Positions 1,380 to 19,600 of a stretch of DNA of 21,841 nt are shown one piece after another; within the stretch, counting starts at the first letter, position 1; each line of letters starts with the position of its first letter. The translations under genes and the position numbers were made by a program. The stretch comes from Candidatus Saganbacteria bacterium (GTDB lineage: Bacteria > Margulisbacteria > WOR-1 > JAKLHX01), in the NCBI GenBank assembly GCA_026387835.1, contig JAPLKZ010000001.1:1-21841 (forward strand), given 5' to 3'. The notes beneath the pieces were generated by a model that was not told the origin of the DNA, made no database searches, and worked only from the letters and a program-made list of their open reading frames with translations.

Positions 1380-2318
1380 ATGTTAGACATAGCCCAAAAA
1401 CAAAAGAATTTGGCTCTTAAAGCTAAAGAAAGACCAAAAGAAAGAATTGGTGGACTTTATTCCCTTATAAGTCAAAAAGAATGGATAATACAGTCCTTGT
1501 GGAATGTGCTACAAAATAGTGGTGCAAAAACAGAGGGTGTTGATGGAAAGGTAAAAGAAACGTATTACGATACAGCAAGACAATCACCAACACCTCAAGG
1601 AATAAAATTGGTAGAGGAAATATGTAGAGAATTGAATGAAAATCTATATAAACCCCAACCTGTGAAACGTATATACATTCCAAAAGCTAATGGGAAAATG
1701 AGACCTATCGGAATTCCAACCATCAAAGACCGAGTGGTGCAAGAAGCAATCAGAATGGTATTAGAACCAATATATGAGTCTGATTTTCTTGGTTGTTCAT
1801 ACGGATTCAGACCAAACAGAAATACGATGGATGCCATCTCAAACTGTTATAGGATGATGAACATACGACCTAAATACTACTGGGTCATTGAAGGTGATAT
1901 AAAAGGATGTTTTGATAATATTGATCACAAAATATTAATGAAACTCATCAAAAATCGGATCGCCGATAGAAAATTAGCGGATACAATTTACAAGTGTCTC
2001 AAAGCGGGTTACCAAGAGGATAATGGGCAAATATGTAAACCCAATGTGGGAACACCACAAGGTGGAATCATATCGCCATTACTAGCAAACATATACTTGT
2101 ATGAAATGGATAAATGGTGGGAACAAAACTACCACCTAAGCAAAAACAAAAGGACAACCCGCAGAAATAGAGGGCTAGGGAACTTCTACCTAATCCGCTA
2201 TGCAGATGATTTCATCATCCTTAGCAACGGAAAGAAAGAGGAAGTTTATAGATTCAAAGAGGAACTATTCAATTTCCTAAAAACAATGAAGCTAGAACTC
2301 TCAGAGGAAAAGACCTGA
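1380..2318 (+). pseudogene. group II intron reverse transcriptase, N-terminal fragment (RT domains 0-6, ends prematurely)
   Basis: Motifs present: MRPIGIPTIKDRVVQ, YGFRPNR, IEGDIKGCFDNIDH, GTPQGGIISPLLANIYL and RYADDFIIL. The ORF stops right after LELSEEKT, where RT7 and the thumb/X domain should follow. Confidence 0.85.
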
Positions 2319-3125
2319 ACTGATCGAAACCTTGAAAAAATTGGACAGAGAATCCAAAAAGCTACAACCAATGGACTTCTACGATGAGAGTTACAGAAGA
2401 CTGAGATATTGTCGCTATGCAGATGACTTCATACTTGGCGTCGTCGGAACGAAAGATGAAGCAAGAGAGATCATGGAGAATGTCAGGAATTTCTTGAATT
2501 CAGAACTAAATCTCCGAACCGCAAGCGATAAGACAGGCATTAGCTCAGGTAAGGAAGGCACACAATTCCTGAGTTATAGTATCTCCATGTATAGCACCGA
2601 TAAGCTGGTGCGTATAAAGGTGAAAGGGAGATACATAAAGCGAAGGACAGTCTCTAACCGAGTATCTCTCAGAGTGCCAGATGGTAAAGCACAGAATTTC
2701 TGTCAACGATATGGCTATGGTAATTGGCAAACCAATAAGCCTACCCATAGCCAATACTGTATCAATCTTCTGACTTGGAGATTATCAGCACGTATAACGC
2801 AGAGCTAAGAGGATTGGCTAACTATTATTGTCTTGCTAATGATGTTAAAATGAAGCTAGGAAAATTGGAATATATTTGCAATTACAGCTTATTCCATACA
2901 CTTGCCGCAAGACATAATACCAAAAAGTCAACAATCCTGAGAAAGCTCAAAAGAGGGAATGAGTATGTTCACCGATACGATGTTAAAGGTGAACAGCGTG
3001 AGATCAAAGTTTTCAGGCTCAAACATATAGATAGAAAGCCAATAATGTGGAATGTCGACGAAGAACCCAATCCTCTATGTCTGAAATCAACCAGAAATGA
3101 ACTGGTGAAAAGGTTAAACTATTAG
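2296..3125 (+). pseudogene. second, LtrA-like RT (domains 4-end to 7) plus maturase X-domain fragment, frameshifted
   Basis: LKKLDRES...RYCRYADDFILGV gives a second YADD motif. Next come DKTGISSGKEGTQFLSYSI (RT6/7) and, in another frame, SSDLEIISTYNAELRGLANYY (X domain). The frames switch between 2751 and 2775 (ORF-track pieces 2332..2808 and 2775..3125). No En or DNA-binding tail. Confidence 0.8.
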
Positions 3126-3226: not shown

Positions 3227-4207
3227 TTGGCAGCGACAGACCTTGAGATCGGTATACGGGTTTCCGTAGATGGTCAGGTGACAGAGGGTGGCCCTATTAC
3301 AATACCAGCAAAGAAATTCGCTGCGATGGTGAAGGAGATGACGGATTCTGAGATACACCTGGTGACAATGCCGGAAGATAAGATAAGCATTACTTGTGGT
3401 TCAGCGAGGTTCAAGATAGCTGGATTACCCGCTGATGAGTTCCCTCCGTTAATAAATGAAAAAGATAATGATAAGAAGCTATCTTTTGTCTCTATGGACT
3501 CCAACGTATTGCTGACTATGATCCAGCAAACGTCATTCGCCGCTTCGAGAGAAGAAACGAGGCATTTCCTGAATGGCGTTCACATCAGCCTGAAAGAAAT
3601 ACTGGTAAAGATGGCAGCGACTGATGGCAAGAGATTGGCTGTGGCTACCGCAAACTTGGATGATGCAACTACGGAAGAGAAACAAGGTATAATACCTACC
3701 AAGGCAGTGGAGCGTCTCAAGGAGATGCTAACATACACTGTTATTGTGAAGATATGTTTGGACAATAGCCGCATAATCTTTGATATGGGTGATATTACAC
3801 TTGTTTCAAGGCTTATCGAGGGTGAGTATCCCGATTATGAAAAAGTGATACCAGTAGAGAACGGCATAAGGCTGACTATGGATACACAGCGACTGCTTTC
3901 CATAATTAAACGAATTGGGACGATGGCTAACCCAAAGACACCGGGTTTGACGATGGAGACTACAGGCGACATCCTAAAGGTGAAAGCATCAACACTGGAA
4001 TATGGCGAGGGCTGTGAGGAAACGCAAATAAAGAAGGAAGGCGACGACATAAGCATTGGACTCAATGCTCAGTATCTAATGGACATCCTGAAAGCCACTG
4101 ACAGAGATGAAGTGGTGTTTAGCATGAGTGATCCACTCAAGCCTATCCTGATGAAACCAGTCGGCAACGATGGCTATGTCTGTGTGATCATGCCGATGAG
4201 GTTATAG
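3227..4207 (+). CDS. dnaN: DNA polymerase III beta sliding clamp, 5'-truncated (homology extends upstream to about 3134 with no start codon)
   Basis: ATDLEIGIRV, TIPAKKF, RHFLNGV, ATDGKRLA, GEYPDYEKVIP and the C-terminal YVCVIMPMRL match the DnaN pattern (E. coli ends YVVMPMRL). The upstream in-frame peptide CPTLLLSNLLI aligns to E. coli RPTLPILGNLLL (about residue 25). No ATG/GTG/TTG occurs between the stop at 3098-3100 and TTG 3227. Confidence 0.8.
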   Translation: MAATDLEIGIRVSVDGQVTEGGPITIPAKKFAAMVKEMTDSEIHLVTMPEDKISITCGSARFKIAGLPADEFPPLINEKDNDKKLSFVSMDSNVLLTMIQQTSFAASREETRHFLNGVHISLKEILVKMAATDGKRLAVATANLDDATTEEKQGIIPTKAVERLKEMLTYTVIVKICLDNSRIIFDMGDITLVSRLIEGEYPDYEKVIPVENGIRLTMDTQRLLSIIKRIGTMANPKTPGLTMETTGDILKVKASTLEYGEGCEETQIKKEGDDISIGLNAQYLMDILKATDRDEVVFSMSDPLKPILMKPVGNDGYVCVIMPMRL

Positions 4208-4396: not shown

Positions 4397-4479
4397 TTGT
4401 GAAGAATAGATCCTTATGGATTAGATATAAGACAATAAATCATAATAGCTGATTATTTTAGGTGAGAAAGAGAATCATA

Positions 4480-7400
4480 ATGCAATGCCCAAAGTGTAAG
4501 CACGATAATCGAGAAGGCAGGAAGTTTTGTGCCAAATGCGGCGCCAAAATGGGATGGGTATGTCCAAAGTGTGGCTTTGAAAATGAAGCAGATGAGCTGT
4601 TCTGTGGTGAATGTGGAACTAAGCTTGGAGAATTTCAACCACCAATACAACCTACTATTCCCAAACTAGAGGACATGCAAAGCAGACTATACATCCCGGA
4701 GCCGCTCAGGAAGCGAATGGACTCAGCTATGCAGGAAATGGAGGGTGAGAATCGTCTCATTACTACACTCTTCGCTGATATATCGGGCTTTACCCAACTA
4801 TCGCAGGAACTATCACCAGAGGATATAGTAGAGAAGGTCAACCAGTGTTTCCAAGCGATAACTGACGCCATCTATCGCTGTGAAGGCAATATCAATCGTT
4901 TCATTGGTGACTGCGTATTAGCGTTCTTCGGCGCTCCACTTACCCATGAGGATGACCCGTATCGTGCTGTCATGTCTGGACTGGATATGATAAGTGCAGT
5001 ATCCAATATTGGTCTGAATATCAAGGTTGGCATCAACACTGGCATGATGTACTTCGGTCCCATCGGCACACAGGAACACAGTGAGATCAGTGCTTATGGT
5101 GAAGATATAAACCTTGCTAAACGCCTACAAGAGTCTGCACAGCCCGGTCAGGTCATCGTGGGAGAGAGGACACACCGATACACCCGCAAAGCCTTCGAAT
5201 TTGAGCAATTGCCACCATTGGAACTTAAAGGCATAAAGAAACCCATATCAGCATATATAGCCATCAAGCAGTTGTCAAAGCCAGAGAAGATAAGGGGTAT
5301 AGAAGGCTTGAGAGCAGAGATGATAGGTCGTGATGAGGAACTTGGTAAACTCAAAGAATCGCTTGATGACGTGATACATGGTCGTGGTCAGATGGTATCA
5401 ATCATAGGCGAAGCTGGAGTCGGTAAGTCACGTCTGGTAACTGAACTGAAGAAGCTTGCTCTTAACACTGATAATTCAGGTCCATTATGGTTAGAAGGTC
5501 GCTGTCTTTCATTGGGAGTGACAGCAAGCTACTGGGCATTTATAGACATATTCAGAGAATACTTCGGATGGGGAACTGATGAATCAGACACTACAAGGGC
5601 AGAGAGTATAGTCTCATGCTTGAAGGATATAGTATCTCAAGGTGATATGACGGAGGATCGCTATGATGAGATAGGACCAATGCTAGGGAATTTGTTATCT
5701 GTCAAGTTTGGCAATGACTGGGACGATAGGCTTAAAACCGCAGACCCACAGCAGATCAAGCACAGGACGTTCATGGCAGTTAGAGATTTCTTCATCGCTC
5801 TTTGTAAACGCCAACCTGTTATACTGGTGTTTGAGGATTTGCACTGGGCAGACAGCCTATCGCTTGATTTGATCTCATTGCTTATGGAAGCGTTAACGCT
5901 TGCACCTTTATTCTTAGTATGCGTGTATCGTCCGGAAAAAGAGCATAAGTCATGGCATCTAGGAACGATAGCATCACAGAAATGCTCGGAGAGATACACA
6001 GAGATCCATCTTAGAGAACTAACACATCAGCAAAGCCAAAGGCTAATAGAGTCATTACTAAGAATTGAGGACTTGCCGGTATCTGTTAAGGAAATGATAT
6101 TGAGTAAGTCACAGGGCAACCCATTCTTCGTAGAGGAAGTCATCCGTTCATTGATAGAGATGGGAATGGTATACAGAGAGAACGACAAGTGGTTCGCAAG
6201 GGCAGGCATAGAGTCAATCGCCGTTCCAGAGAGTATTCAAAGCGTAATACTGAGTCGTATAGACAGGCTGGAAGATGAGTTACGGCATATCCTTCAGAGC
6301 GCATCGGTCATAGGGTGTTTATTCCGTAGAAACCTTCTTGAGAGAGTGACACAGCAGGAATCAGAATTGGAGCGTGACTTATGGGATTTAGAAGATCATG
6401 AGCTAATCTATCAAGAAAGAATAGTTCCAGAGGAGGAGTATTCATTCAAGCATGCCTTCACACAGGAAACGGTGTATGGAAGTATCCTATCACGCAGGCG
6501 TTCAGCGTTCCATCAGCAGGTGGCGGAAGCTATGGAACTGTTATATGGAGACAGCCTAAGCGAATATTATGAGCAGTTGGCATATCATTATGACAGGAGC
6601 AGTAATGCAGAGAAAGCAGTGGAATATCTGTTGAAGGCTGGTGAGAAGTCACGGGAAGCATACTTGAATGATGATGCTATCAGGTATTTCCAGTGTGCAT
6701 TAGAGCGACTTAATACTTCTAAGTTGAGTGAGTCAAGAAAGGATTTGAAATTATCCGCACTCAAAGACTTGGGACAGGTCTGCTTTGGAACTGGAAAACT
6801 TATAGAAGCTGAGAATTTCTTCCGACAAGCGATCTCTTTAGGGAAAGAAATGGATTTAGCTATCCGTGAATTAGTGCGGATTTATTATTGTTTAGGGGAT
6901 GTATTTTATTATCAAAGCCGATATGATGAAATGCTTCATATAGGAGAAGATGGATTAGCACTTTTGGGTGATGACACGGAATCTGTGGAATCTGCTTTGA
7001 TGAATGATACTATAGCACAAGGTTATGATTCCAAAGGAGATAATAAAAAATATCAGGAATTTATGTTACGGGACGTGCAACTCATTCAAAGATTACCCTA
7101 TTCGGTGGAAATTGTTGGTATTTATTCTCACATTGCTGAAATGTATTCAAATTATGGAAATTTGGAAGATACAATGAAATGGTTACAAATCCAAGAACAG
7201 AAAGGGATACAATATCATGATTTGAGAGTATTGGCTGAGATGCACTTATTTACAAGTTTCACCATTTCTGAAAAAAAAGGTGATTTTCGTGATGGTATTT
7301 CACACCTTCAATATAGCTTGGAACTATTCACTAAAATAGGGGATGTTAAACAAATAGGCACTTCTTTTACTATTATGGGATATTATTTCTTACAGCTTGG

Positions 7401-8427
7401 AGAGTTTCAAGAAGCCGAGGAATATATATACAAAGCACTAGAGATTGTAAAGAGCATAAACCATAGGAGAGATATAGGAATATCATACCTTTTTATTGGT
7501 AATCTCTCACTTTATAAGTGTTTGTTTGAAAAAGCTATAGACAATTATCAAAAAGCCATTCAAATCTTTCAAGAGATTGGTTTTGTTATACTTGAGAAAT
7601 GGACATTTATCTGTTTAGGTCGCGCATATTTGGCCTTTGGAAAACATCAAGAAGCTCTAAAACAATTTCAAGGGACAATTGATTATGATCTCGGTGGTGC
7701 ATTAAGCGGGTTGGAAGAGATTTATATAGCAGAGGAATTCCAAGCCTTCTGTCGTAGCTTCAGAGAGGAGCATCCCTACGCTGGAGGCTCTCAATTCGTC
7801 CAATGGTTTCTGGAACCGTCAGAAGCCAGAGATTTCCCAAGAAGACTATTCCTTGACGATTTTGCAGAATCTCTTTCATCATGGAACTGGAATGATCCGT
7901 TTGGTGATTGCTCACACACAACAAATAATGATCTGGAAATTCATGCGGCAAATGGACGAAATCTCCAGTATCTTAATCTGAGTGCACCAAGAATTCTTCG
8001 ATTAGCAGAAGGGAACTTCGCTATCCAGACTGTTTGTATTCCTGTATCGGAAGATAAACCTACCATCGGTGGAATCCTGATCTGGAAGGATAAAGATAAT
8101 TACCTTCGCCTCGACAGAGGAACAAGGGGTAAATATGAGATCAACTTCTCAGGCTTCATTATAAACCAGTACTTAACCTTCGGTCGTGGGCGTCTGGTTT
8201 CTGATAGAATATTCTTGAGGCTTGAGCGGATTGATAACACAGTCAATGCCCTTTGCAGTCCAGATGAAAATGAATGGTTCACTGTCGGTCATGTAGAATT
8301 CCTTGTTGATGATCCTGTAGAGATTGGGCTTTTCGCCATCGGTATGATAGACCGCACCATCTATCACGGCGCATTTCCTGATGGAACAGCCATCATGTTT
8401 GAGTCATTCGAGTTGTGGGGACAATGA
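4480..8427 (+). CDS. paralog 1: double zinc ribbon - class III nucleotidyl cyclase - STAND/AAA NTPase - TPR-like repeats - ConA-like (DUF1349-like) C-terminal domain
   Basis: All paralogs begin M[QKR]C[PL]KC, so ATG 4480 is preferred over GTG 4462. Zinc ribbons (4x CxxC) 4486-4617. Cyclase about 4750-5270 (TLFADISGFT, RFIGDCVLAFFGAP, INTGMMYFGPIG, YGEDINLAKRLQ). Walker A GEAGVGKS 5407-5430. Walker B ILVFEDLHWAD 5821-5853. GNPFFVEEVIRSL begins at 6115. Helical/TPR-like region about 6520-7700. C-terminal beta-sandwich-like domain about 7850-8424 (WNWNDP, GGILIW, FLRLERIDN..ALCSPDENEW). Confidence 0.9.
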   Translation: MQCPKCKHDNREGRKFCAKCGAKMGWVCPKCGFENEADELFCGECGTKLGEFQPPIQPTIPKLEDMQSRLYIPEPLRKRMDSAMQEMEGENRLITTLFADISGFTQLSQELSPEDIVEKVNQCFQAITDAIYRCEGNINRFIGDCVLAFFGAPLTHEDDPYRAVMSGLDMISAVSNIGLNIKVGINTGMMYFGPIGTQEHSEISAYGEDINLAKRLQESAQPGQVIVGERTHRYTRKAFEFEQLPPLELKGIKKPISAYIAIKQLSKPEKIRGIEGLRAEMIGRDEELGKLKESLDDVIHGRGQMVSIIGEAGVGKSRLVTELKKLALNTDNSGPLWLEGRCLSLGVTASYWAFIDIFREYFGWGTDESDTTRAESIVSCLKDIVSQGDMTEDRYDEIGPMLGNLLSVKFGNDWDDRLKTADPQQIKHRTFMAVRDFFIALCKRQPVILVFEDLHWADSLSLDLISLLMEALTLAPLFLVCVYRPEKEHKSWHLGTIASQKCSERYTEIHLRELTHQQSQRLIESLLRIEDLPVSVKEMILSKSQGNPFFVEEVIRSLIEMGMVYRENDKWFARAGIESIAVPESIQSVILSRIDRLEDELRHILQSASVIGCLFRRNLLERVTQQESELERDLWDLEDHELIYQERIVPEEEYSFKHAFTQETVYGSILSRRRSAFHQQVAEAMELLYGDSLSEYYEQLAYHYDRSSNAEKAVEYLLKAGEKSREAYLNDDAIRYFQCALERLNTSKLSESRKDLKLSALKDLGQVCFGTGKLIEAENFFRQAISLGKEMDLAIRELVRIYYCLGDVFYYQSRYDEMLHIGEDGLALLGDDTESVESALMNDTIAQGYDSKGDNKKYQEFMLRDVQLIQRLPYSVEIVGIYSHIAEMYSNYGNLEDTMKWLQIQEQKGIQYHDLRVLAEMHLFTSFTISEKKGDFRDGISHLQYSLELFTKIGDVKQIGTSFTIMGYYFLQLGEFQEAEEYIYKALEIVKSINHRRDIGISYLFIGNLSLYKCLFEKAIDNYQKAIQIFQEIGFVILEKWTFICLGRAYLAFGKHQEALKQFQGTIDYDLGGALSGLEEIYIAEEFQAFCRSFREEHPYAGGSQFVQWFLEPSEARDFPRRLFLDDFAESLSSWNWNDPFGDCSHTTNNDLEIHAANGRNLQYLNLSAPRILRLAEGNFAIQTVCIPVSEDKPTIGGILIWKDKDNYLRLDRGTRGKYEINFSGFIINQYLTFGRGRLVSDRIFLRLERIDNTVNALCSPDENEWFTVGHVEFLVDDPVEIGLFAIGMIDRTIYHGAFPDGTAIMFESFELWGQ

Positions 8428-8446: not shown

Positions 8447-11400
8447 ATGAAATGCCCGAAATGCCAAAGCGAATATCAGGTAGGAGATAAATTCTGTAGA
8501 GAGTGTGGAACGAAGCTACCATCCATCTGCCCACAATGCAGACACGAAGTGAGTCCAAAAGATAAGTTTTGTCCCGAATGTGGAACCGACCTTGTAAAGA
8601 CCCAGAAGGTTGACCAAAAAGTAACTGCTCCAAGTCTGGAGGATTTATATACTAGGCTTCAGCGCTCCATGCCGCAATCCCTTGCCGAAAAGATTCAGAC
8701 TGCCATTGCTACAGAAGGTGAGAACAGGATATTGTCAATCCTATTCGCTGACGTCACCAATTCTGTTGCTATCACTGAAAATATGCCTCCGGAAGATTCT
8801 GCTGACCTGATCAGCGAATGTCTCAAGTCAATGACAGATCCGATACTCAGGCATGGCGGATTCATCAATCGCTATCTAGGAGACAGCGTTCTGGCATTTT
8901 TCGGCATACCTGAAACCCATGAAAATGATCCAGAAAGGGCTATATTGTCCGCACTGGAAATGCGAGATGCTGTAACAAAGCTGAATCTGAGCATAAAGAT
9001 CAGCATCAATACAGGCATGGTTTTCGTCGGCGCCATAGGTCCAGACTCTCATAGCGAGTTTACAGCTATGGGTACTGCAGTGAACCTTTCCGCTAGATTA
9101 AAGGACATAGCGGAACCGGGGCAGATCCTTGTAGGTGAAACCACGTATCGCTCAACGAGACGCTCTTTCGAGTTCCAGCCATTGCCTTTATTGACAATCA
9201 AAGGCATCAGCGAACCCATACATGCTTATGAAGTGATAAAGCCATTGCCAAAGCCAGAGAAAATTCGTGGCATCGAGGGCATAGGGTCAGAAATGATCGG
9301 CAGGGATAAGGAGTTCTCGGAACTAAAAGAATGTGTGGATGAGTTACTAGCCGGCAAGGGACAGATCGTCTCAATTATCGGGGAAGCAGGTGTTGGTAAA
9401 ACCAGATTGGTATCTGAGTTGAAAGAGTATCTCAGACAAAAAATAAAAGATAAAAAGGGATCCTCAATCTTTCATCCTTATTTAGAAGGTCGTGGCGTTT
9501 CCATTGGTGAATCTGTCGGTTACTGGGTATTCATTGACATTCTGAGAAGTTATCTGGAATTCTCTGAGCAAGACAGCCTTGATGACCGCAAAAAGAAAAT
9601 CATAGACAGGATGCAATCGCTTTTCCCGCAGAGATGGGAAGAGATTGTTCCCTACATAGGCAACCTGCTTTCGGTCAGATTTGACAATGAATGGGACGAA
9701 AAGATCAAGTATCTCCCACCGGAACAGGTTAAGTATCAGACTTTCCTTACGTTGAGGGACATATTTCTCATTCTTGCGCAGCAGAACCCGCTTCTGCTCA
9801 TTTTTGAGGATTTACATTGGGCAGATAACCTGTCATTAGATATGATAAACCTTCTGATGGATATTCTCACCATCTCACCGCTTATGATACTGTGCATATA
9901 TCGTCCGGAGAAGGAACACAAAAGCTGGCACATCGGGACACGTGCATCAGGCAAATGCCTTGAACGGTATAGGGAGATAACGCTCAGAGCATTGAACCCT
10001 CATGAGAGCAGGATGCTGATAGAGTCACTACTCACCATAGAAAACCTTCCTGAATCAGTTAAGCAGACTGTCACAAACAAGGCAGGAGGTAATCCATTCT
10101 TCGTTGAGGAAGTCATAAGGTCGTTGATAGAGAGAGGTGTAGTCTATCAGGACGGGGATAGATGGATCGCCAAGGAAGACATCAATGATGTAGAGGTGCC
10201 AGATACCATTCAGAGTGTTATCATGGCAAGGATAGACAGGTTAGAGGAGGAGGTTAAGTATGTGCTTCAGAGCGCATCGGTGATAGGCAGGCTATTCCGA
10301 TACAATCTGTTGCGATATATCACACAGCAGGAGGGAAATCTGGACGGTTACCTTTGGCAGTTAGAGGAGAGGGATCTGGTATATGAGGAGCACGCTATAC
10401 CTGAACTGGAATACAGTTTCAAGCATGTCCTTACGCAAGAGACAGCATACAACACAATATTATCGCGCAGGCGCAGAGAATTCCATCGCAAGGTGGCAGA
10501 GGGATACGAAGCATTGTATTCATCGCGCATAGAGGAGTGTTACGAGGAACTGGCATATCATTACAGCAGAAGTGATGATAAAGATAAAGCATTGGATTAT
10601 CTTGTGAAGGCAGGGGATAAATCTAAAAAGGTTTATGCCAATGAATCGGCTATTGAGTATTACAATCAGGCATTAAAGCTGGCTGAAGTTTCGGAATCAA
10701 AATCTGTTGATGTACTTGGGCATATCTACCAGAGCTTAGGGGAAATATACTTTCCGATGGCAAGGCATAAAGAGGCATTGGAATATTGTCATAAGGCATT
10801 AGAGTATATCACCAATGGGAAACTCCGATCCAGGATCTATGCAATAATGGGTTGGGCTTGTGAACGAGAAGCCAGGTATGATCAAGGATTGGAATATCTT
10901 AATGCTGGAGTTACCGAGCTTGGGGAAGACACAAATTCTGTTGAAATGGCGCGGATATGTATTCCCATGTCATGGATCAAAGGCGATCAGGGAAAGCTGG
11001 AAGAAGGCATAAAGATAGCGAAAAATGGGCTGAAAGTAGTAGAAGGAACTGATTCCATTCCCGAAATACAGGATTTACTCATCTTCCTTGCCCTTGTAGT
11101 CTGTTTGTCCGGTGATACAGATAAGGCTTTCGAGTATGCGCGAAAATCGGTGGAGGTTGCTGAGAAATCCGGGAATAGCTATTTTATCGCGAACACAACT
11201 CTCCATCTTGGATGGGTATACTGGTATGCTGGTGAGGATGATGTTTCTATTAGACTCATGGAAAAGGCATTAGAGATTTTCAAGAAGCTAGATTACCAGT
11301 TTTTCATTGGTCAAGCCTGCTCTTATATTGGGCGAGTGTATTATGGAAGGAACGATTGGGATATGGTTATTATATACTTTGAAGAGTTTCTAAAAATGCC

Positions 11401-12322
11401 CAATCATCCATGGTTTATAGTTCATTTGTATTTACTTGGTTTTGTGTATCTTTTGAAAGGAAACACAGAGAAAGCTATCGAGTATAGCAAAAAGGCTTTG
11501 GAGTGTATTGGTCTACCCAATAGCTCAAAAGTTCATAATTCTGTTTTCTTTGGTATATTGTATACTCTAGAAGAGGCTTATATTCTGGTTAAGCGATGGG
11601 ATGATTTTATCTCTTATTGGGAAGCAATCAAAAAAGAAAAAGCGGATTTCATCCAGGAGTTTGGTTCTGTTAAATGGTATCTTGAATCGAGGGAACTATC
11701 AGGACATTTTATTGAACCAAGTTTTATAGATGAATTTGCTGAACCTGGTTTAAAGCCTGAATGGAAATGGGAAGATCAGGGAGGGAAGGCTAGTTATAAC
11801 TTTTCGAGTAAAGCCGGTTGGCTGGAAATTCGCACAGCTTCTCCCCGAACCTTTTCTGGTCTGGGAAGAAAATTTATTACCTCTGGAAATACATCTATGC
11901 TGCTTCAGGAAATATCAGGGGATTTTGCCGTTGAGACAAAAATGACACTCGCTGCTGATAATTTACCATCGGTTGGGGGTTTTGTTGTCAGAAAAGACGG
12001 AGAATATCAGGTTCAACTTGAGATGAAAATGGAAGGTATACATAATATCAGTTTGGTAGGTAATATGCGAGGGATATATAATGTTTTTGGAATAGGTGTT
12101 CTGGTTTCCGACGTCGTATATCTCCGATTTGAGCGAATAGGTGATAAATTTATAGCATACTGTAGTGATGATGAGAGGAAATGGATGACTTGTGGTGAAT
12201 TTAGTTTCCCTGTTGAAGATCCAATCCAGGTTGGTCTATACACCGTTGGAGTTGCTGGAGTGTTCGGACCTACTAATACTGATTTTGTTACTCATTTCGA
12301 CTGCTTTCGAATATTCAGGTAA
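8447..12322 (+). CDS. paralog 2: double zinc ribbon - divergent cyclase - STAND/AAA NTPase - TPR-like repeats - ConA-like C-terminal domain
   Basis: SD gaggt 8436-8440; 19-nt gap from paralog 1. Zinc ribbons 8453-8584. Cyclase about 8717-9240 (ILFADVTNSV, RYLGDSVLAFFGIP, INTGMVFVGAIG, GTAVNLSARLK). Walker A GEAGVGKT 9380-9403. LLIFEDLHWAD and GNPFFVEEVIRSL are present. C-terminal domain about 11755-12319 (WKWEDQ, ISGDFAVETKM, YLRFERIGDKFIAYCSDDERKW). Confidence 0.9.
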   Translation: MKCPKCQSEYQVGDKFCRECGTKLPSICPQCRHEVSPKDKFCPECGTDLVKTQKVDQKVTAPSLEDLYTRLQRSMPQSLAEKIQTAIATEGENRILSILFADVTNSVAITENMPPEDSADLISECLKSMTDPILRHGGFINRYLGDSVLAFFGIPETHENDPERAILSALEMRDAVTKLNLSIKISINTGMVFVGAIGPDSHSEFTAMGTAVNLSARLKDIAEPGQILVGETTYRSTRRSFEFQPLPLLTIKGISEPIHAYEVIKPLPKPEKIRGIEGIGSEMIGRDKEFSELKECVDELLAGKGQIVSIIGEAGVGKTRLVSELKEYLRQKIKDKKGSSIFHPYLEGRGVSIGESVGYWVFIDILRSYLEFSEQDSLDDRKKKIIDRMQSLFPQRWEEIVPYIGNLLSVRFDNEWDEKIKYLPPEQVKYQTFLTLRDIFLILAQQNPLLLIFEDLHWADNLSLDMINLLMDILTISPLMILCIYRPEKEHKSWHIGTRASGKCLERYREITLRALNPHESRMLIESLLTIENLPESVKQTVTNKAGGNPFFVEEVIRSLIERGVVYQDGDRWIAKEDINDVEVPDTIQSVIMARIDRLEEEVKYVLQSASVIGRLFRYNLLRYITQQEGNLDGYLWQLEERDLVYEEHAIPELEYSFKHVLTQETAYNTILSRRRREFHRKVAEGYEALYSSRIEECYEELAYHYSRSDDKDKALDYLVKAGDKSKKVYANESAIEYYNQALKLAEVSESKSVDVLGHIYQSLGEIYFPMARHKEALEYCHKALEYITNGKLRSRIYAIMGWACEREARYDQGLEYLNAGVTELGEDTNSVEMARICIPMSWIKGDQGKLEEGIKIAKNGLKVVEGTDSIPEIQDLLIFLALVVCLSGDTDKAFEYARKSVEVAEKSGNSYFIANTTLHLGWVYWYAGEDDVSIRLMEKALEIFKKLDYQFFIGQACSYIGRVYYGRNDWDMVIIYFEEFLKMPNHPWFIVHLYLLGFVYLLKGNTEKAIEYSKKALECIGLPNSSKVHNSVFFGILYTLEEAYILVKRWDDFISYWEAIKKEKADFIQEFGSVKWYLESRELSGHFIEPSFIDEFAEPGLKPEWKWEDQGGKASYNFSSKAGWLEIRTASPRTFSGLGRKFITSGNTSMLLQEISGDFAVETKMTLAADNLPSVGGFVVRKDGEYQVQLEMKMEGIHNISLVGNMRGIYNVFGIGVLVSDVVYLRFERIGDKFIAYCSDDERKWMTCGEFSFPVEDPIQVGLYTVGVAGVFGPTNTDFVTHFDCFRIFR

Positions 12323-12350: not shown

Positions 12351-15300
12351 ATGCGATGTCCGAAATGCAGACACGAAAATCGTGATGAGGCTAAGTTTTG
12401 TGAGGAATGTGGGGAGAAGCTACAGCATAAATGCCCCAACTGCGGCGCTGAACTGAGACCAAACGCCAAATTCTGTGATGAGTGTGGAACTAAAGTTTCG
12501 GAGCAATCCTCTGCAAAAACCACTGCTATTCCCAAGCTCGAAGATATGCACGCACAACTGCAAAGCCTGATACCTGACGCCTTAGCTCAGAAATATCTAT
12601 CCGCAACACAGCAGGCTATTGGTGAGAACCGTCCCATAACTGCGCTGTTCGCTGACATATCAGGATTCACCCCTCTATCAGCTTCCCAATCATCAGAATC
12701 CGTATTCCAGTTGGTGCAGGAGTGCTTCAAGCAACTGGTTAGTATTGTCGCCAGTTATGAAGGAAGTATCAGCGGATTTCGTGGTGACGGTCTGCTTGCC
12801 CTATTTGGTGCGCCTATCCTGCATGAGAACGATGCTGAGAGAGCAATTCTAGCGGCAATAGATATGAGAAAGATGATGGAAGACAGACAACTTGGTATAT
12901 CTATTGGCATCAATACTGCCATGATGACTGTCGGTGAGATACAGACCCAGCTGCATAGTGAATATACTGCTTATGGAACAGATATTAACCTTGCCAAGAG
13001 ATTACAGGAAGCCGCTATGGCTGGCCAGATACTGGTAGGATCAGGAACTCATCGTCTTACCAGACGTGCATTCGACTTTCAGGAAATACCATCGCTGGAA
13101 CTGAAAGGATTCAGCCAACCAGTTACAGCTTATGTCCTACAACATATAAAATCACATCCTGAGAAACTGCGTGGTATCGAGGGATTGCGAGCAAGGATGG
13201 TTGGCAGGGATAAAGAATATGAGGAACTCATAGACGTTACAGAGGAATGGATTGCTGGCAAGGGACAGATAATATCTATCGTGGGTGAAGCAGGGATCGG
13301 CAAGTCAAGACTGGTATCTGAGTTGAAGGGTCACCTTGAAACAGATAGCAGTCATGCTCATCTATATCTCGAAGGGCGTTGCATCTCCATTGGACAACCT
13401 ATCAGCTACTGGCCGTTCCTTGACATTCTGAGAAGCTGGTTTAGTCTGAGTGAGGAGGATACCGAAGCTGAAATGGCAAATAAAGTTAGACAGCAGATAG
13501 AATCATTCATGCCAGATAGGACTGATGACATTCTCCCATTCTTGGGACAGCTTATGAACCTTCAGTTCGGTGGAGAGATAGACACAAGATTAACACATTA
13601 CAGTCCAGAGCAAGTGAAACAAGGAATAATGATGCGCCTGCGGGACATATTCGAGGCACTGTCACAGCGTAATAATCTGATGCTGATCCTTGAGGACCTT
13701 CATTGGGCGGATGAACTGTCACTTGACCTTATATCCTTACTGATGGATGAATTGATGGCGCATCCACTGATGTTAGTGTGTGTATACCGTCCAGAACAGG
13801 GACACAATGTCTCAAGGTTGAGCAGTATAGCTCGTAGGAAGTGTCTTGAGAGATACACGGAGATCGCACTCAAACCACTGCCTGATCCCGAAGGCAGAAG
13901 GCTTGTGCATGAACTTCTAGCGATAGATGACCTTCCAGACAGCGTGCGAGATATGATCCTTGCTAAGTCAGAGGGGAACCCGTTCTTCATTGAGGAAGTG
14001 ATCCGCTCATTAATGGAACAAGGGTTGGTATACAAGGATGATGACAGTTGGGTGGCAAAGGCTGACGTGATTGAGGTTCAAGTTCCGGATACGATACAGA
14101 GCGTTATACTAGAGCGAGTAGATAGGCTGGAATCAGAAGCCAAATATGTATTACAGTGTGCCAGTGTTATAGGCAGGCTGTTTAAGTATCGGTTATTAGA
14201 TCACATAACCCAGAAGCAGAAGGAATTGGATGGATACCTTGATGAATTCGAGGAGCGTTATCTTGTGTATCCAGAGCGAACAGTTCCAGAGATGGAGTAT
14301 GCCTTCAAGCACGTACTGACACAGGAAGCTACATATCAGGGGATACTGGAACAGAGAAAGCAGGCATTCCATCGTAATGTGGCGCTGGGTATCGAAAGGC
14401 TATATAAAGAACGTATAGAGGATTTTTACGAGGAATTAGTTTATCATTGGGAACGAAGCAAGGACAGAGAGAAAACACTTGAGTATCTTGTGAAGGCTGG
14501 AAAGAAATCGGCAAAGCATTATTTGAATCAGGTCGCTATTGATTATTATACCCTTGCAATTAAAATGGCTAATGAAGTTGGCATATTGGAGGATAGGTTG
14601 GCTGAGATATACGAAGCTAGAGGATGGGTTTATAATGATATGGGTTTTTACGAAGAATCTATATCTGATATGATGAAAGCAGCGGATTTTTATGCCAATA
14701 AATCAAAGCGTGCTAATATGTATAGGCAGATTGCTCGTAATTATTGGGCACGTATTACTGATATAGAACAAGGTTCCCAATATTTCTACAAAGCAATAGA
14801 GGAGATCGATCCTTCGGATAAATCCCGAGAGACTGCTGGCATTTATGAAGATGCGGGAGCATTCTTCATCTACATGGGTGGAGATACAAAAGAAGGGGAG
14901 CGCCTTTTGCGGAAAGCCATCGCTATATCAGAAGAGATGGGATATAATGATCTATTGGCTATGCATTACAGGTGGTTATATATACTCAATTGGAGTTCTG
15001 ACGAGGAGGAATTCAGGAAACAACGACAGTTTGCACGAGAAAAAGCAATTTCCTATCTACCTTACCTCAAACCTAATCTGTCCCAATATGCGGAAGTATG
15101 TGGTCAATTGGGGTGGGGTTTTCATTTCGATGATCGCTTTCTGATAGAAGCTTTTGAATCTGCTGTAAAGTCCGAGAATAACTGGTCGGTTGTGGCGTTT
15201 GGGTCAATGTTGGCAATCATATATTGTGGTCAGGGAAAGATTCAGAAAGCTATTGAAGTATACGAACAGGGATGGCGATCCGCCGTATTATCAAGACAGC

Positions 15301-16676
15301 TTCAAGGAGGGCATGTCATACGACTTACAATTGGTCTTGTTGGTATGTATGTATCACGAGAAGATCGATCCAGATTGTTGGACATGATGCTCCAGATGGT
15401 AGACTCGACCATAGAATTGCATAGTAAGTCAGAAGTTCATCCAACAGTTCAGCACCGGTGGAATGAAATATTAGAGGGTATATATAAGATAATTCATGCA
15501 ATGGCTCCGGAAATATACTATGAACTGGAGCATTTGCTGGAATCACATCTGAACGAAACCAATACCGATGGTGTGAGATTTTTCTATTATGGACAACTCA
15601 TGCTGTTAGCTTTACTAGATGGTCGTCCTGTTGATGCAGAATCCTATATGCAAGAATTACTAAAGCTACATCCATATGCAGGAAGCTTTGCCCAACGAAT
15701 ATCAAAAAAATTATTATATGATATCGAATTAATGAACGCGCTGTCAGAACAGCGAATGTCAATAACTACAAATTTGCTTAGATCTTCTGAGAAATTCGAT
15801 GATTTTGAGAAAGCCCTGGATGCCATGAGCTGGGTGTTGACAAAAGACGAAATCTCTGCCGCTATAGATTGGACTCACCTGAATTATACCGTCTTGAATG
15901 AGCTTCAGAAGCAACGCCGATTGCTTCTCATATATTCTGAAAGAAGCGATATACTGCGAGATGTGGAGTATATCTATGATTGTTATGATTATAGAAGCAA
16001 ACTTCAATCGCTGGCAGACCAAGTTCAGCAGACAGCTGCTAACGCTCTGCAAGAGGAAGGGATAACCCAATTATTTCTCGAACAGATGGAACCGTTGGAA
16101 ATTGGCTTACTTGAGTTAATGGATCAATTCAAGCAAGATCCTACAACTGCTGGTTGGGAATGGGTGGATCCCACAGGATATTGCCGCTATAAATCAGACG
16201 AAGAAGGTTACTTGCAGATTGACGTTCCGCCAGGACATGAATTGAGTGAAGGATTTTATATGCGTAATGCCCCCCTTATGTTACGGACTATTTCAGGTGA
16301 CTTTATCCTTGAGACGAAGATTGCTGACGGTTCCACCGGTATAAAGCGTGGCGGATTGCTCCTATGGAATTCAGAGACTAACTTTGCTCGTTTTGGGGTT
16401 GATTTTGATTATATATCTTATAAAGCAACTGCAAATGGAAAATTCATCAGTCCCGGAGTGCATCCATTTAAGGCAGAAAGAGTCTGGCTTAGGTTAGAAC
16501 GCAAGGGATCTCGTTTCACTGGGTATGTGAGTAATGATGGTAAATATTGGTATCGCTGTGGGTGGGCTGATATCACCATGAACGATTCTATCAAAGTGGG
16601 TATCTACGCTTCTTGTTTTTATCCACCGGCGACATCAACAAGATTTGAATATTTCAAGATATATAGACCCAAGTAA
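12351..16676 (+). CDS. paralog 3: double zinc ribbon - class III cyclase (type b) - STAND/AAA NTPase - TPR-like repeats - extra helical module - ConA-like C-terminal domain
   Basis: SD agaggtga 12337-12344; 28-nt gap. Cyclase about 12630-13140 (ALFADISGFT, SGFRGDGLLALFGAP, INTAMMTVGEIQ, YGTDINLAKRLQ). Walker A GEAGIGKS 13284-13307. MLILEDLHWADELSLDL and GNPFFIEEVIRSLME are present. C-terminal domain about 16150-16673 (WEWVDPTG, ISGDFILETKI, GGLLLW, VWLRLERKGSRFTGYVSNDGKYW). Confidence 0.9.
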   Translation: MRCPKCRHENRDEAKFCEECGEKLQHKCPNCGAELRPNAKFCDECGTKVSEQSSAKTTAIPKLEDMHAQLQSLIPDALAQKYLSATQQAIGENRPITALFADISGFTPLSASQSSESVFQLVQECFKQLVSIVASYEGSISGFRGDGLLALFGAPILHENDAERAILAAIDMRKMMEDRQLGISIGINTAMMTVGEIQTQLHSEYTAYGTDINLAKRLQEAAMAGQILVGSGTHRLTRRAFDFQEIPSLELKGFSQPVTAYVLQHIKSHPEKLRGIEGLRARMVGRDKEYEELIDVTEEWIAGKGQIISIVGEAGIGKSRLVSELKGHLETDSSHAHLYLEGRCISIGQPISYWPFLDILRSWFSLSEEDTEAEMANKVRQQIESFMPDRTDDILPFLGQLMNLQFGGEIDTRLTHYSPEQVKQGIMMRLRDIFEALSQRNNLMLILEDLHWADELSLDLISLLMDELMAHPLMLVCVYRPEQGHNVSRLSSIARRKCLERYTEIALKPLPDPEGRRLVHELLAIDDLPDSVRDMILAKSEGNPFFIEEVIRSLMEQGLVYKDDDSWVAKADVIEVQVPDTIQSVILERVDRLESEAKYVLQCASVIGRLFKYRLLDHITQKQKELDGYLDEFEERYLVYPERTVPEMEYAFKHVLTQEATYQGILEQRKQAFHRNVALGIERLYKERIEDFYEELVYHWERSKDREKTLEYLVKAGKKSAKHYLNQVAIDYYTLAIKMANEVGILEDRLAEIYEARGWVYNDMGFYEESISDMMKAADFYANKSKRANMYRQIARNYWARITDIEQGSQYFYKAIEEIDPSDKSRETAGIYEDAGAFFIYMGGDTKEGERLLRKAIAISEEMGYNDLLAMHYRWLYILNWSSDEEEFRKQRQFAREKAISYLPYLKPNLSQYAEVCGQLGWGFHFDDRFLIEAFESAVKSENNWSVVAFGSMLAIIYCGQGKIQKAIEVYEQGWRSAVLSRQLQGGHVIRLTIGLVGMYVSREDRSRLLDMMLQMVDSTIELHSKSEVHPTVQHRWNEILEGIYKIIHAMAPEIYYELEHLLESHLNETNTDGVRFFYYGQLMLLALLDGRPVDAESYMQELLKLHPYAGSFAQRISKKLLYDIELMNALSEQRMSITTNLLRSSEKFDDFEKALDAMSWVLTKDEISAAIDWTHLNYTVLNELQKQRRLLLIYSERSDILRDVEYIYDCYDYRSKLQSLADQVQQTAANALQEEGITQLFLEQMEPLEIGLLELMDQFKQDPTTAGWEWVDPTGYCRYKSDEEGYLQIDVPPGHELSEGFYMRNAPLMLRTISGDFILETKIADGSTGIKRGGLLLWNSETNFARFGVDFDYISYKATANGKFISPGVHPFKAERVWLRLERKGSRFTGYVSNDGKYWYRCGWADITMNDSIKVGIYASCFYPPATSTRFEYFKIYRPK

Positions 16677-16690
16677 TCTGGAGTATTGAT

Positions 16691-19600
16691 ATGAAATGTC
16701 TTAAATGCAAGCAAGATAATCCGTCAGAAGCTCTGTTCTGTATGAAGTGCGGGACAAAGCTTGAGCGAAAGTGTCCCAACTGTGGAGCAGAATATCCAGA
16801 AGAAGCTGCATTCTGCATGAAATGTGGAAAAAAACTAAAGGAAGCACCAGAATCGGCAATCCCCAAGCTAGAAGACATGCAAGATAAACTCTACATCCCA
16901 GAACCACTCAGGCAGAGGATGGATACTGCCAAACAAGAGTTACAGGGAGAAAACCGTCTTGTCACAGCGTTATTCGCAGATATATCAGGATTCACTCCTC
17001 TATCCAACCAACACTCTCCTGAGAATGTGGTAAACATAGTGAACGACTGCTTCAAGGTCATAGTTGATACTATATTCAGATACGAAGGCAATCCTAATCG
17101 GTTCATAGGCGACAACGTCCTAGCATTCTTCGGTGCGCCAATAACACATGAGAACGATCCAGAACGTGCTATTATGTCAGCACTGGAAATGCGTGATAAA
17201 GTCAGAGAACTATCACTTAATATATCAGTTGGCATTAATACTGGAATGATGTATTTCGGACCCATCGGCACTAAGGAGCATCTGGAAGTCAGCGCATACG
17301 GACCAGACATCAATCTTGCCAAGAGATTGCAGGAGATAGCAAATCCCGGTCAGATACTGGTAGGTTCTGGGACATACAGGCTTACCAAGAGAGCATTCGA
17401 CTTCCAACAGACACCATCACTTAACCTGAAAGGCATAGATAAACCCGTGACTGCTTATGAGGCAGCAAAGATAAAAGAGCATCCAGAGAAGCTCAGAGGC
17501 ATAGAGGGCTTACAGTCACGCATGATCGGCAGGGAACATGAATTTACCGAGTTGAGAGACACAGTGGATATGTGGCTATCCGGTCAAGGACAAATGGTCA
17601 GTATAATAGGTGAAGCGGGTATAGGCAAGTCAAGGTTAGTCAAAGAGATAAAGGGGTTTATCAACGATAAGCCATGTCTATGGCTAGAAGGACGTTGTAT
17701 ATCCATAGGACAGCCCATAAGCTATTGGCCATTTATTGATATGTTCAGAACGCTATTCGATCTGAAGGAGGATGATAACGAGAAGGATATTGCTAGGAAG
17801 TTAAAGGATAATATAACAGAGCTATTCCCTAATAGAGCAGATGATATATTGCCATTCATAGGACACCTTATGTCCATCCAGTTCGGAGATGAGCTAGACA
17901 GCAAGCTTGATGGATATGGTTCAGAGCAGATCAGGTATCAGACTATGGTGAGACTGAGGGACATATTCGCAACCATAGCAAGAAGCAAGCCTTTATTACT
18001 CATACTGGAGGACTTGCACTGGAGTGATGAGTTATCCCTTGACCTAATAGCGATGCTGATGGATGAGCTTGTTACCAGTCAGATGCTTCTGTTGTGTGTT
18101 TACAGACCGGAGCAGGATCATAAGTGCTGGAAACTCAGTGGGATGGCACAGCGTAAGTGCTTTGAGAGCTATACTGAGTTACAGTTGAAGAAGCTCAACA
18201 GGACACAGAGCTATGAGATGGTTCACTCACTTCTTGCCATAGATGCCCTTCCAGATAGTGTCAGGGATATGATCCTTGTCAAGTCAGAGGGTAATCCATT
18301 CTTCATAGAGGAAGTGATACGTTCACTCATGGAGAGGGAATTGGTGTATAAAGATGGTGATAGATGGACAGCGAAGTCAGGCATAGAACATATAGACGTT
18401 CCCGACACAATACATGGGGTGATAATGGAGCGAATTGACAGGTTAGAGACAGAGACGAAGTATGTCCTACAATGTGCCTCTGTCATCGGCAGATTATTCA
18501 GATACAGGCTTCTTGATCACTTAATGAGCCATGAGCGTAAACTGGATGATTATCTCGATGAGCTAGAGGGTAGGGAGTTAGTGTTAGAGGAGCGTGCTAT
18601 GCCAGAGCTAGAATACACGTTCAAGCACGTACTGACACAGGAAGCGACCTACCAGACCATCCTAGAGCAAAGGAGAAGGCAGTTCCACAGACAGGTTGCA
18701 GAAGGCATAGAACGATTGTATCAGGATCGGATAGAGGAATTCTATGAGGAGCTTGCTTATCACTGGGAGCGAAGCAGGGATCAGGAAAAGACGTTAGAAT
18801 ATCTTATAAAGTCTGGGGAGAAAGCCACAAAAAACTACCTAAATGACATTGCTATTGACTATTATACACGGGCAATTCAGTTGGCGGAGGAACTAAGGAT
18901 TACCGGTGACAGGCTTGCAGAAATATACGAAAGGCGTGGAGGTGTATACCAATCCATCGGTTTTCTGGAGGAATGTGTCTCCGATACCACTGAGGCTGCG
19001 GATCTTTACACACAGAGAACTAGGCGTGCCAGCATGTATGCGCGGATTTCCCGTCTTTATTATGGAACTATATGTCAAGGGCAGGCAACAGATGAAGGTC
19101 TAATCTATTCTCGTAAAGCCATTGAGGAGATTGACCCGACAGATAGATCACGAGAAGCTATTATGACGTATCTACGTGCAGGCTGGGTCCGTAGTCTGGA
19201 AGAATGGGAGCCCATTCTGAATAAAGCCATAGCTATTTCAGAGGAGGAGGGATATAGAGATCTCCTTGCCCACCTACATGCGCTTCTATACTATCTACGC
19301 CTGGGAGTGGGTGGACTAGAAGAGCAAGCTAGGCTTGAGCGGGAAAAGGCTCTCTATTATCTACCGCACCTCAAGCATGACTTAACTGAATACGCAGCAG
19401 CTTGTAGTTTATTGGCGTTTTGGGGGAGTGAGAATGAGCGAATTAGCCTTGCAAGGGAAGCTATGGAAGCCGCGGCTAAATCCGGGAAGAGCTGGTCAAC
19501 TGTGGTATCGGCAGATCAACTGGGCACATATTATCTCCGCCAGGGAGAGACTCAAAGAGCCATAGAGATATTTGAGGAAGGATGGCAGGCTGGCGTCCGA

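Follow-up and report, generated by a model that had tools for sequence, protein, structure and literature searches.

Substrate prediction for class III nucleotidyl cyclases still relies on a two-residue code, in which Lys with Asp or Thr stands for ATP and Glu with Cys or Ser stands for GTP. In class IIIb adenylyl cyclases, Thr (or Ser) replaces the substrate-binding Asp (PMC2613629; PMC7384201); this type, which is stimulated by bicarbonate or CO2, includes CyaC of Arthrospira platensis (1WC0), CyaB of P. aeruginosa (3R5G) and mammalian soluble adenylyl cyclase. Rv0386, Rv1358 and Rv2488c of M. tuberculosis join a cyclase to an ATPase and a LuxR helix-turn-helix (HTH). EaPycC (8JSF) is the clade E Pycsar cytidylate cyclase of Elizabethkingia anophelis, with metal ligands D102 and D146 (PMC11224242). 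Here we describe five cyclase domains that break the code at the Lys position. They are encoded in an array on a 21,841-nucleotide stretch, hereafter the window, which comprises bases 1-21841 of a 23871-nt contig (C7; JAPLKZ010000001.1) in a 1.5 Mb, 13-contig genome assigned to Candidatus Saganbacteria.

Five consecutive giant genes on one strand fill the window from 4462 to its end in the list of open reading frames (ORFs). The four complete proteins (1291-1441 residues each) match Pfam models for a double Zn-ribbon, a PF00211 cyclase, an AAA_16 (PF13191) STAND ATPase and TPR repeats, and three of the four carry a C-terminal DUF1349/GH43_C2 ConA-like domain. The translations of paralogs 1-4 show GEAG[VI]GKS as the Walker A motif and EDLHW[AS]D as the Walker B motif. 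The portion of paralog 5 within the window comprises the Zn-ribbons and the cyclase domain only. These five paralogs give the only PF00211 matches in the genome. We name the cyclase subtypes RIS, RLT and GRT after the residues at the Lys site, two positions further on (+2) and at the Asp site.

4462-8427, + strand: paralog 1, 1321 aa; double Zn-ribbon, class III cyclase, AAA_16 STAND ATPase, TPR and C-terminal ConA-like region (ORF list, translation, Pfam)
4744-5280, + strand: cyclase domain of paralog 1, subtype RIS (Arg146/Ile148/Ser210); PF00211, E 8e-23, residues 100-266
4897-4899, + strand: Lys-position codon of paralog 1, CGT = Arg146; opposite Lys of CyaC/CyaB, Glu of Cya2 and Arg142 of EaPycC
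5089-5091, + strand: Asp/Thr-position codon of paralog 1, AGT = Ser210, class IIIb type; opposite Thr of CyaC/CyaB
5110-5124, + strand: transition-state motif of paralog 1, N217-L-A-K220-R221, with a clade-specific Lys at the position of the guanine-contacting Tyr of Cya2
8447-12322, + strand: paralog 2, 1291 aa, architecture as paralog 1; cyclase domain 8717-9253, subtype RLT
12351-16676, + strand: paralog 3, 1441 aa; cyclase domain 12621-13157, subtype GRT
16691-21001, + strand: paralog 4, 1436 aa, a mosaic; cyclase domain 16946-17482, subtype RIS
21019-21841, + strand: paralog 5, N-terminal 274 aa within the window, gene continuing on the contig; cyclase domain 21295-21831, subtype GRT

All five domains match PF00211 with 58-81 bits, against a curated cut-off of 21.9. 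A HMMER search of the PDB with the cyclase domain of paralog 1 returned CyaC (1wc0/1wc1, 8.5e-26), Cya2 (2w01, 3.7e-25) and CyaB (3r5g, 1.3e-23). The alignments to these three chains contain zero gaps in the catalytic motifs and map six canonical positions. When the five domains were aligned by MAFFT with CyaC, CyaB, Cya2 and EaPycC (8jsf), Arg or Gly stood opposite the Lys of CyaB and CyaC and the Glu of Cya2, and Ser or Thr fell in the column of the CyaB and CyaC Thr. An AlphaFold2 model of paralog 5 (predicted local distance difference test score, 83) found CyaB 3r5g as its top match in Foldseek (TM score 0.85, root-mean-square deviation 1.8 Å), with CyaC and Cya2 as next neighbours and a Foldseek probability of 1.00 to all three. 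The model has the βααββαβ cyclase fold. The residue equivalences used below thus rest on gap-free HMMER and MAFFT alignments to solved chains and on the strand assignment of the model. Read out codon by codon, the catalytic residues are as follows.

Paralog 1: D106, R146 (F147, I148), D150, S210, N217, K220, R221
Paralog 2: D102, R142 (Y, L144), D146, T206, N213, A216, R217
Paralog 3: D102, G142 (F, R144), D146, T206, N213, K216, R217
Paralog 4: D97, R137 (F, I139), D141, S201, N208, K211, R212
Paralog 5: D104, G144 (F, R146), D148, T208, N215, K218, R219

Both metal-binding Asp residues and the transition-state Asn and Arg are kept in 5/5 paralogs. The adenine-selecting Lys position is occupied by Arg in paralogs 1, 2 and 4 and by Gly in paralogs 3 and 5; the substrate-Asp position holds Ser in paralogs 1 and 4 and Thr in paralogs 2, 3 and 5. 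Glu, the mark of guanylyl cyclases, is found at the Lys position in none of the five. An earlier note on this DNA, centred on positions 4750-5270 (residues 97-270 of paralog 1, its PF00211 cyclase domain), had reported the metal Asp pair and the Asn/Arg pair from a by-eye alignment. The codon read-out bears this out in every paralog, and all the motifs it quoted (LFAD, NRFIGD, NRYLGD, SGFRGD, [IV]SAYG, FTAMG, YTAYG, INLAKR and VNLSAR) are present. Its by-eye equivalences agree with the HMMER and MAFFT alignments to solved cyclases and with the AlphaFold model, which place neither Lys/Asp nor Glu/Cys at the specificity positions. Its description of the substrate-selecting positions as non-canonical is right for the Lys position, with its Arg or Gly, but not for the Asp position, where Ser or Thr is a class IIIb hallmark. 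The note also took paralogs 3 and 5 to be simply Gly/Thr, and so missed the Arg that lies two residues past the Gly and co-varies with it: these domains read S-G-F-R-G-D, an arrangement that we call the arginine shift.

The five domains resemble class IIIb enzymes in fold (Foldseek TM 0.76-0.85), in the metal Asp pair, in Thr or Ser for Asp, in the Asn/Arg pair and in carrying the full catalytic set within each chain. Because the closest solved structures, CyaC and CyaB, are Lys/Thr enzymes, we place the domains with the class IIIb type and regard the missing Lys as the real departure: the substrate-binding Lys that class IIIb enzymes retain is absent from all five paralogs in the MAFFT alignment. 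In its place the paralogs have Arg, or Gly with Arg at +2. They differ from class IIIb enzymes in other respects. In the pocket of their clade, Tyr and Lys stand in for the Met/Ile/Leu and Ala/Ser of class IIIb enzymes. The α3-β4 insertion is shorter, and the regulatory STAND-TPR-ConA-like modules are C-terminal, with a double Zn-ribbon at the N-terminus. On balance, the alignments favour the view that the five are catalytically competent class III cyclases of class IIIb type that fall within an arginine-bearing clade, here called the arginine clade.

Two short helices precede the first cyclase strand, at about residues 64-90 (12540-12620 in paralog 3; residues 65-75 and 78-88 in the model of paralog 5). 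Their motif, L-Q-S-L-I-P-D-A-L-A-Q-K-Y, resembles the cyclase-transducer element of class IIIa and IIIb cyclases. Such an element would be unusual given the C-terminal sensors.

The arginine clade is a conserved and previously unstudied variant of class III cyclases. With the cyclase region as query, a 5.8-billion-protein collection yielded 596 full-length relatives that share the architecture. Almost all are metagenomic; the few named ones come from Poribacteria, Chloroflexi, Acidobacteria and Spirochaetia. Representatives at 50% identity supplied the nearest other cyclase domains. The 123 closest sequences show the site patterns Arg-x-Ile...Ser, Arg-x-Leu...Thr and Gly-x-Arg...Thr, and more distant neighbours mostly have Lys with Thr, Ser, Ala or His. 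Of about 200 neighbouring domains, just one has a Glu-Cys pair. A tree built with FastTree from 311 domains over 175 columns contains the following clades.

Arg or Gly at the Lys site: 142 leaves, holding 133/140 such sequences; support 0.88; all five paralogs
Gly type (GRT): 43 leaves, 43 with the state; support 1.0; paralogs 3 and 5
Arg/Ser (RIS): 72 leaves, 62 with the state; support 0.84; paralogs 1 and 4
Arg-x-Leu/Thr (RLT): 16 leaves, 14 with the state; support 0.97; paralog 2

The Arg/Gly clade is flanked in this tree by Lys/Thr-Ser clades, and the states at the Lys and Asp sites are 100% conserved in clades of 62 Arg/Ser, 26 Arg/Thr and 43 Gly/Thr sequences. They are not noise. Since the five copies fall in three old subtypes, they are not recent duplicates with drifting active sites; the RIS, RLT and GRT subtypes share contigs in other organisms too.

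Further positions vary together with the Lys site. Where Gly occupies the site, Arg stands at +2 in 45/48 sequences and Gln in the other 3/48; among other sequences, Arg at +2 is found in 8/274. The combination of Gly with Arg at +2 looks, from these counts, like the compensated relocation of one functional group. In the AlphaFold model of paralog 5, Gly144 and Arg146 lie in one β-strand (residues 141-146), so their side chains should face the same way, and the shifted Arg may reach the base pocket. Immediately before the Lys site, 83% of Lys-type domains have Asp, 98% of RIS domains have Asn and 95% of GRT domains have Ser. Two residues past the Ser/Thr, Lys-type domains have Met, Ile or Leu, and 88-97% of RIS and GRT domains have Tyr. 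Before the catalytic Arg, Lys-type domains have Ala or Ser, and 91-93% of RIS and GRT domains have Lys. In Cya2, the Tyr at this last position contacts guanine and raises guanylyl cyclase activity (PMC4215837). Eleven of the 123 close relatives have Ile or Asp for the transition-state Asn in an otherwise intact site, and these may be inactive or regulatory copies within arrays. In the accessible literature, which covered the abstract of an actinobacterial survey (PMC2447327), we found no class III adenylyl cyclase described with Arg at the Lys site.

Taken with the domain order, these features suggest how the proteins could work. By analogy with other STAND proteins, ligand binding by the TPR/ConA-like C-terminus would lead to ATP-dependent oligomerisation of the STAND module. 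Oligomerisation would bring two N-terminal cyclase domains together and switch on synthesis of a 3',5'-cyclic mononucleotide (cNMP), which would be read by proteins with a cyclic-nucleotide-binding (CNB) domain. Class III cyclases form their active sites in head-to-tail dimers. Homodimers with a complete catalytic set in each chain have two such sites, and each chain here has the full set, so a homodimer would form two. In RIS and RLT domains, Arg replaces the Lys that binds adenine N1; in GRT domains, the Arg two residues further along the β-strand would present the same group from the same face of the strand. Dimerisation, STAND activation and the nature of the product are proposals, whereas the fold, the residue identities, the co-variation, the clade structure and the gene neighbourhoods of relatives are observed.

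The wider family offers some support for a cNMP signal. A scan of species-representative genomes found 80 loci of Zn-ribbon-cyclase-STAND genes, in Chloroflexota, Rokubacteria, Binatia, Myxococcota, Cupriavidus, Dictyobacter and further taxa. The ORFs at these loci have Gln (37), Arg (24), Lys (22) or Gly (1) at the Lys site, so that departure from Lys is a general trait of STAND-linked cyclases, of which Rv0386, with Gln, is the only one studied. In a gene-neighbourhood sample of 82 related loci (1.02 Mb), a CNB gene lies within 8 kb in 14. At seven Chloroflexota loci, an Arg-type cyclase-STAND gene is followed directly by a CNB-histidine kinase gene in the same orientation. Six of them, with coordinates in our numbered loci, are listed below.

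L083, 8465-10312: CNB-histidine kinase
L081, 14089-15957: CNB-histidine kinase
L021, 5581-7098: CNB-histidine kinase
L032, 9180-10622: CNB-histidine kinase
L027, 13343-15205: CNB-histidine kinase
L082, 13033-14574: CNB-histidine kinase

Some of these kinases end in a CoA_binding_2 domain, and the pairs look like an undescribed relay from a cNMP to a two-component system. The closest named relative, L010 (GRT, 54% identity), has a gene for a CNB-PP2C phosphatase (6419-7651) immediately upstream; in L009, which has two RIS genes, a CNB-SpoIIE gene lies two genes upstream; and CRP-like regulators occur in two related loci. Counted by ORF, CNB loci include 8/24 Arg-type, 1/22 Lys-type and 3/37 Gln-type ORFs, figures that are indicative only, since the genomes are related. 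These neighbourhoods point to a 3',5'-cNMP in ordinary signal transduction. They do not reveal the base, because CNB domains also read cUMP. The CNB domains of the partners, aligned by hand to E. coli CRP, appear to vary at the position of Ser128 (Asn, Gln or Glu), a comparison too weak to be used here. In a separate observation, a CYTH-domain gene (triphosphate tunnel/class IV cyclase fold) lies directly upstream of a RIS-type cyclase-STAND gene on a 288-kb contig (L092, 9026-9679).

The genome has a single cNMP-binding protein, which combines a metallo-β-lactamase (MBL) fold with two CNB domains (contig C5, 86842-88626; 52-1839 in L006) and was not found in the 7 same-family genomes searched. 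We considered it as the receptor and set it aside, because one of its CNB domains has Lys, and the other Cys, in place of the phosphate-binding Arg. Its architecture is that of the cGMP-stimulated phosphodiesterases of Dictyostelium.

As the earlier note had held, the product cannot be read from the sequence. It would be a 3',5'-cNMP. Conversion of ATP to cAMP would be the likeliest single reaction, because Arg, like Lys, is a cationic hydrogen-bond donor and because Glu is absent, and we give cAMP as main product slightly less than an even chance. The alternatives stay alive because of the remodelled pocket and the precedents of EaPycC and Rv0386: we consider cCMP or cUMP unlikely, relaxed or dual specificity somewhat more so, and both cGMP and an inactive or otherwise different outcome improbable.

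Several points weigh against cAMP and against the proposed signalling route. The sole characterised class III-like enzyme with Arg/Thr that we found, EaPycC, makes cCMP (PMC11224242), and the literature yielded no assayed member of the arginine clade. Four conserved, remodelled pocket positions, as they appear in the alignment, argue against a neutral exchange of Lys for Arg. Specificity in class III cyclases is reported to arise during catalysis and not on binding (PMC7384201), and residue codes therefore predict it poorly. In Pycsar systems, CNB domains read pyrimidine cNMPs as well (PMC11224242). Seven further closest-clade loci (L008, L090, L091, L092, L093, L094 and one without DNA) showed no CNB gene, in five of them, L008 included, by the Pfam families of adjacent genes, so the link to CNB proteins is real in part of the family and not universal. 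The window likewise lacks a receptor gene; paralog 5 is cut off by the end of the contig, with the downstream genes unseen.

The arginine-clade domains could instead be pyrimidine cyclases, in which the pocket, with its Arg and its bulky Tyr and Lys, would favour a smaller base in the manner of Pycsar PycC. The earlier note had raised a pyrimidine product, and EaPycC makes the suggestion worth entertaining: its Arg142 sits at the Lys site, four residues before D146, and a Thr occupies the Asp site, so that both positions match exactly. In the MAFFT alignment, which used the PDB chain, paralog 1 (R-F-I-G-D) and paralog 3 (G-F-R-G-D) fall in register with its R-L-Q-G-D. By this alignment EaPycC is an Arg/Thr enzyme with the code of paralog 2 (R142-L-Q144-G-D146 plus Thr). 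The triple mutation F100A/R142A/Q144A abolishes its activity and yields no cCMP, 'bulky residues' occur at neighbouring positions in clade D PycC, and cUMP can be read by CNB domains (PMC11224242). PADLOC PycC models also match all four full-length proteins, with E from 4e-18 to 1e-4; the matches to PF00211 and to CyaC and CyaB are stronger. The resemblance to EaPycC is local, and overall similarity is marginal (E 0.005, versus 1e-25 for CyaC). Gln144 at +2 is Ile or Leu in the RIS and RLT paralogs, and EaPycC has Ser/Lys where the paralogs keep the canonical Asn/Arg. EaPycC is also a stand-alone protein whose partner is a killing effector activated by a cNMP. Within the window, which closes inside paralog 5, the array adjoins no CNB-TM or CNB-TIR effector, the mark of Pycsar, and the neighbours of the relatives are signalling proteins (histidine kinase, PP2C, CRP-like) and not killing effectors. 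We judge pyrimidine cyclases an unlikely alternative. A bolder version appears doubtful: the arginine clade would be a large, unrecognised class III group whose main product is not cAMP, making cCMP or cUMP as EaPycC does, or a mixture. RIS, RLT and GRT cyclases in one array would then make different cNMPs, so that the STAND sensors would emit distinguishable messengers.

Alternatively, by analogy with Rv0386, the domains could be adenylyl cyclases of relaxed specificity or guanylyl cyclases, which we consider about as unlikely as pyrimidine cyclases. The relation to Rv0386 that the earlier note drew is sound: this protein belongs to the same cyclase-ATPase superfamily, joins a class III cyclase at its N-terminus to a STAND ATPase of AAA_16/MalT type, and has a non-canonical Lys site. 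A preprint reports, at second hand, a Gln-Asn pair in Rv0386 and a guanylyl cyclase side activity (bioRxiv 10.1101/2024.03.06.583649). Cyclase and AAA_16 share one chain in paralogs 1-4 (PF00211 and PF13191). The spread of Gln, Lys and Arg at the Lys site across the 80 loci fits relaxed specificity, and Arg is a common hydrogen-bond donor to guanine O6 and N7. The clade-specific Lys occupies the position of the Cya2 Tyr that is tied to higher guanylyl cyclase activity (PMC4215837). Against this, the Lys site lacks Glu, whose contact with N1 and N2 is described as the chief determinant of GTP use (PMC7384201). The C-terminal LuxR HTH and the Gln/Asn pair of Rv0386 are both missing from the paralogs, which instead have Arg (or the shifted Arg) with Ser/Thr, N-terminal Zn-ribbons, and TPR and DUF1349/ConA-like regions at the C-terminus.

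A defence role, as Avs/NLR-like proteins with a cyclase effector, is a possibility; PADLOC returned nothing but PycC-domain matches in the window, and a 2026 STAND survey does not mention cyclases. That the domains are pseudo-cyclases, non-catalytic modules for nucleotide binding or dimerisation that regulate the STAND ATPase only, would agree with the loss of the transition-state Asn in those 11 same-clade sequences and with the inactive cNMP cyclase domains known in conflict systems (PMC7159879), but is very improbable given the metal Asp pair, Asn and Arg kept in 5/5 paralogs and the strong conservation of the whole pocket.

A further related architecture is TIGR03903, the 'TOMM system kinase/cyclase fusion protein', which matches the cyclase-AAA_16-TPR core across about 660 residues (E 8e-81). 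Unlike that family, the paralogs have no kinase domain and no TOMM gene context, and they score 272 bits against a cut-off of 706.

Hundreds of members of the arginine clade occur in uncultured Chloroflexota, Poribacteria, Acidobacteria and other groups, and the clade departs from the substrate code at the Lys position in a manner both conserved and compensated. If its product is cAMP, the code needs an entry in which Arg equals Lys. If the product is not cAMP, pyrimidine or mixed cyclic-nucleotide signalling would reach well beyond phage defence into ordinary STAND-type signal transduction.

Cyclase subtype and sensor type are not linked within the array. Paralog 4 is a mosaic, with a cyclase domain 69% identical to that of paralog 1, a STAND region 63% identical to that of paralog 3 and a C-terminus 48% identical to that of paralog 3. 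Modules have thus been shuffled by exchange within arrays, and the split between type a and type b cyclases that the earlier note considered is not one that sensor architecture follows.

The host of the array is uncertain because contig C7 stands out in composition. It has 43.0% GC, versus 45.8-49.3% for the remaining contigs. By tetranucleotide distance it lies 0.028 from the genome mean, compared with 0.0078 +/- 0.0032 for 56 24-kb pieces of other contigs; this is more than 6 standard deviations beyond those pieces, none of which (0/56) is equally distant. PF00211 was absent from 7/7 same-family genomes searched, and the contigs of the closest homologues carry genes with FlgD_ig, Por_Secre_tail and 3-keto-disaccharide-hydrolase domains. 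The case for and against membership of C7 in this genome is thus one of composition and gene content, and the array is either a foreign island or part of a mis-binned contig.

Upstream of the array the window carries other genes, and Rfam detected no RNA family in it. A group II intron-type reverse transcriptase/maturase spans three ORFs at 1380-3125 (1380-2318, 2332-2808 and 2775-3125) and is apparently broken by frameshifts; the sole other reverse transcriptase-like match in the genome, on contig C9, is 31% identical to it. Directly upstream of the array, at 3227-4207, lies a gene for a 326-aa DNA polymerase III β-clamp-like protein. It is only 28% identical to the product of a dnaN-like gene on contig C3 and is therefore a second, divergent clamp. 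A small SWIM-type zinc-finger ORF is found at 155-508, and on a related 165-kb contig (L091) a SWIM gene (18912-20075) lies just downstream of a two-gene array.

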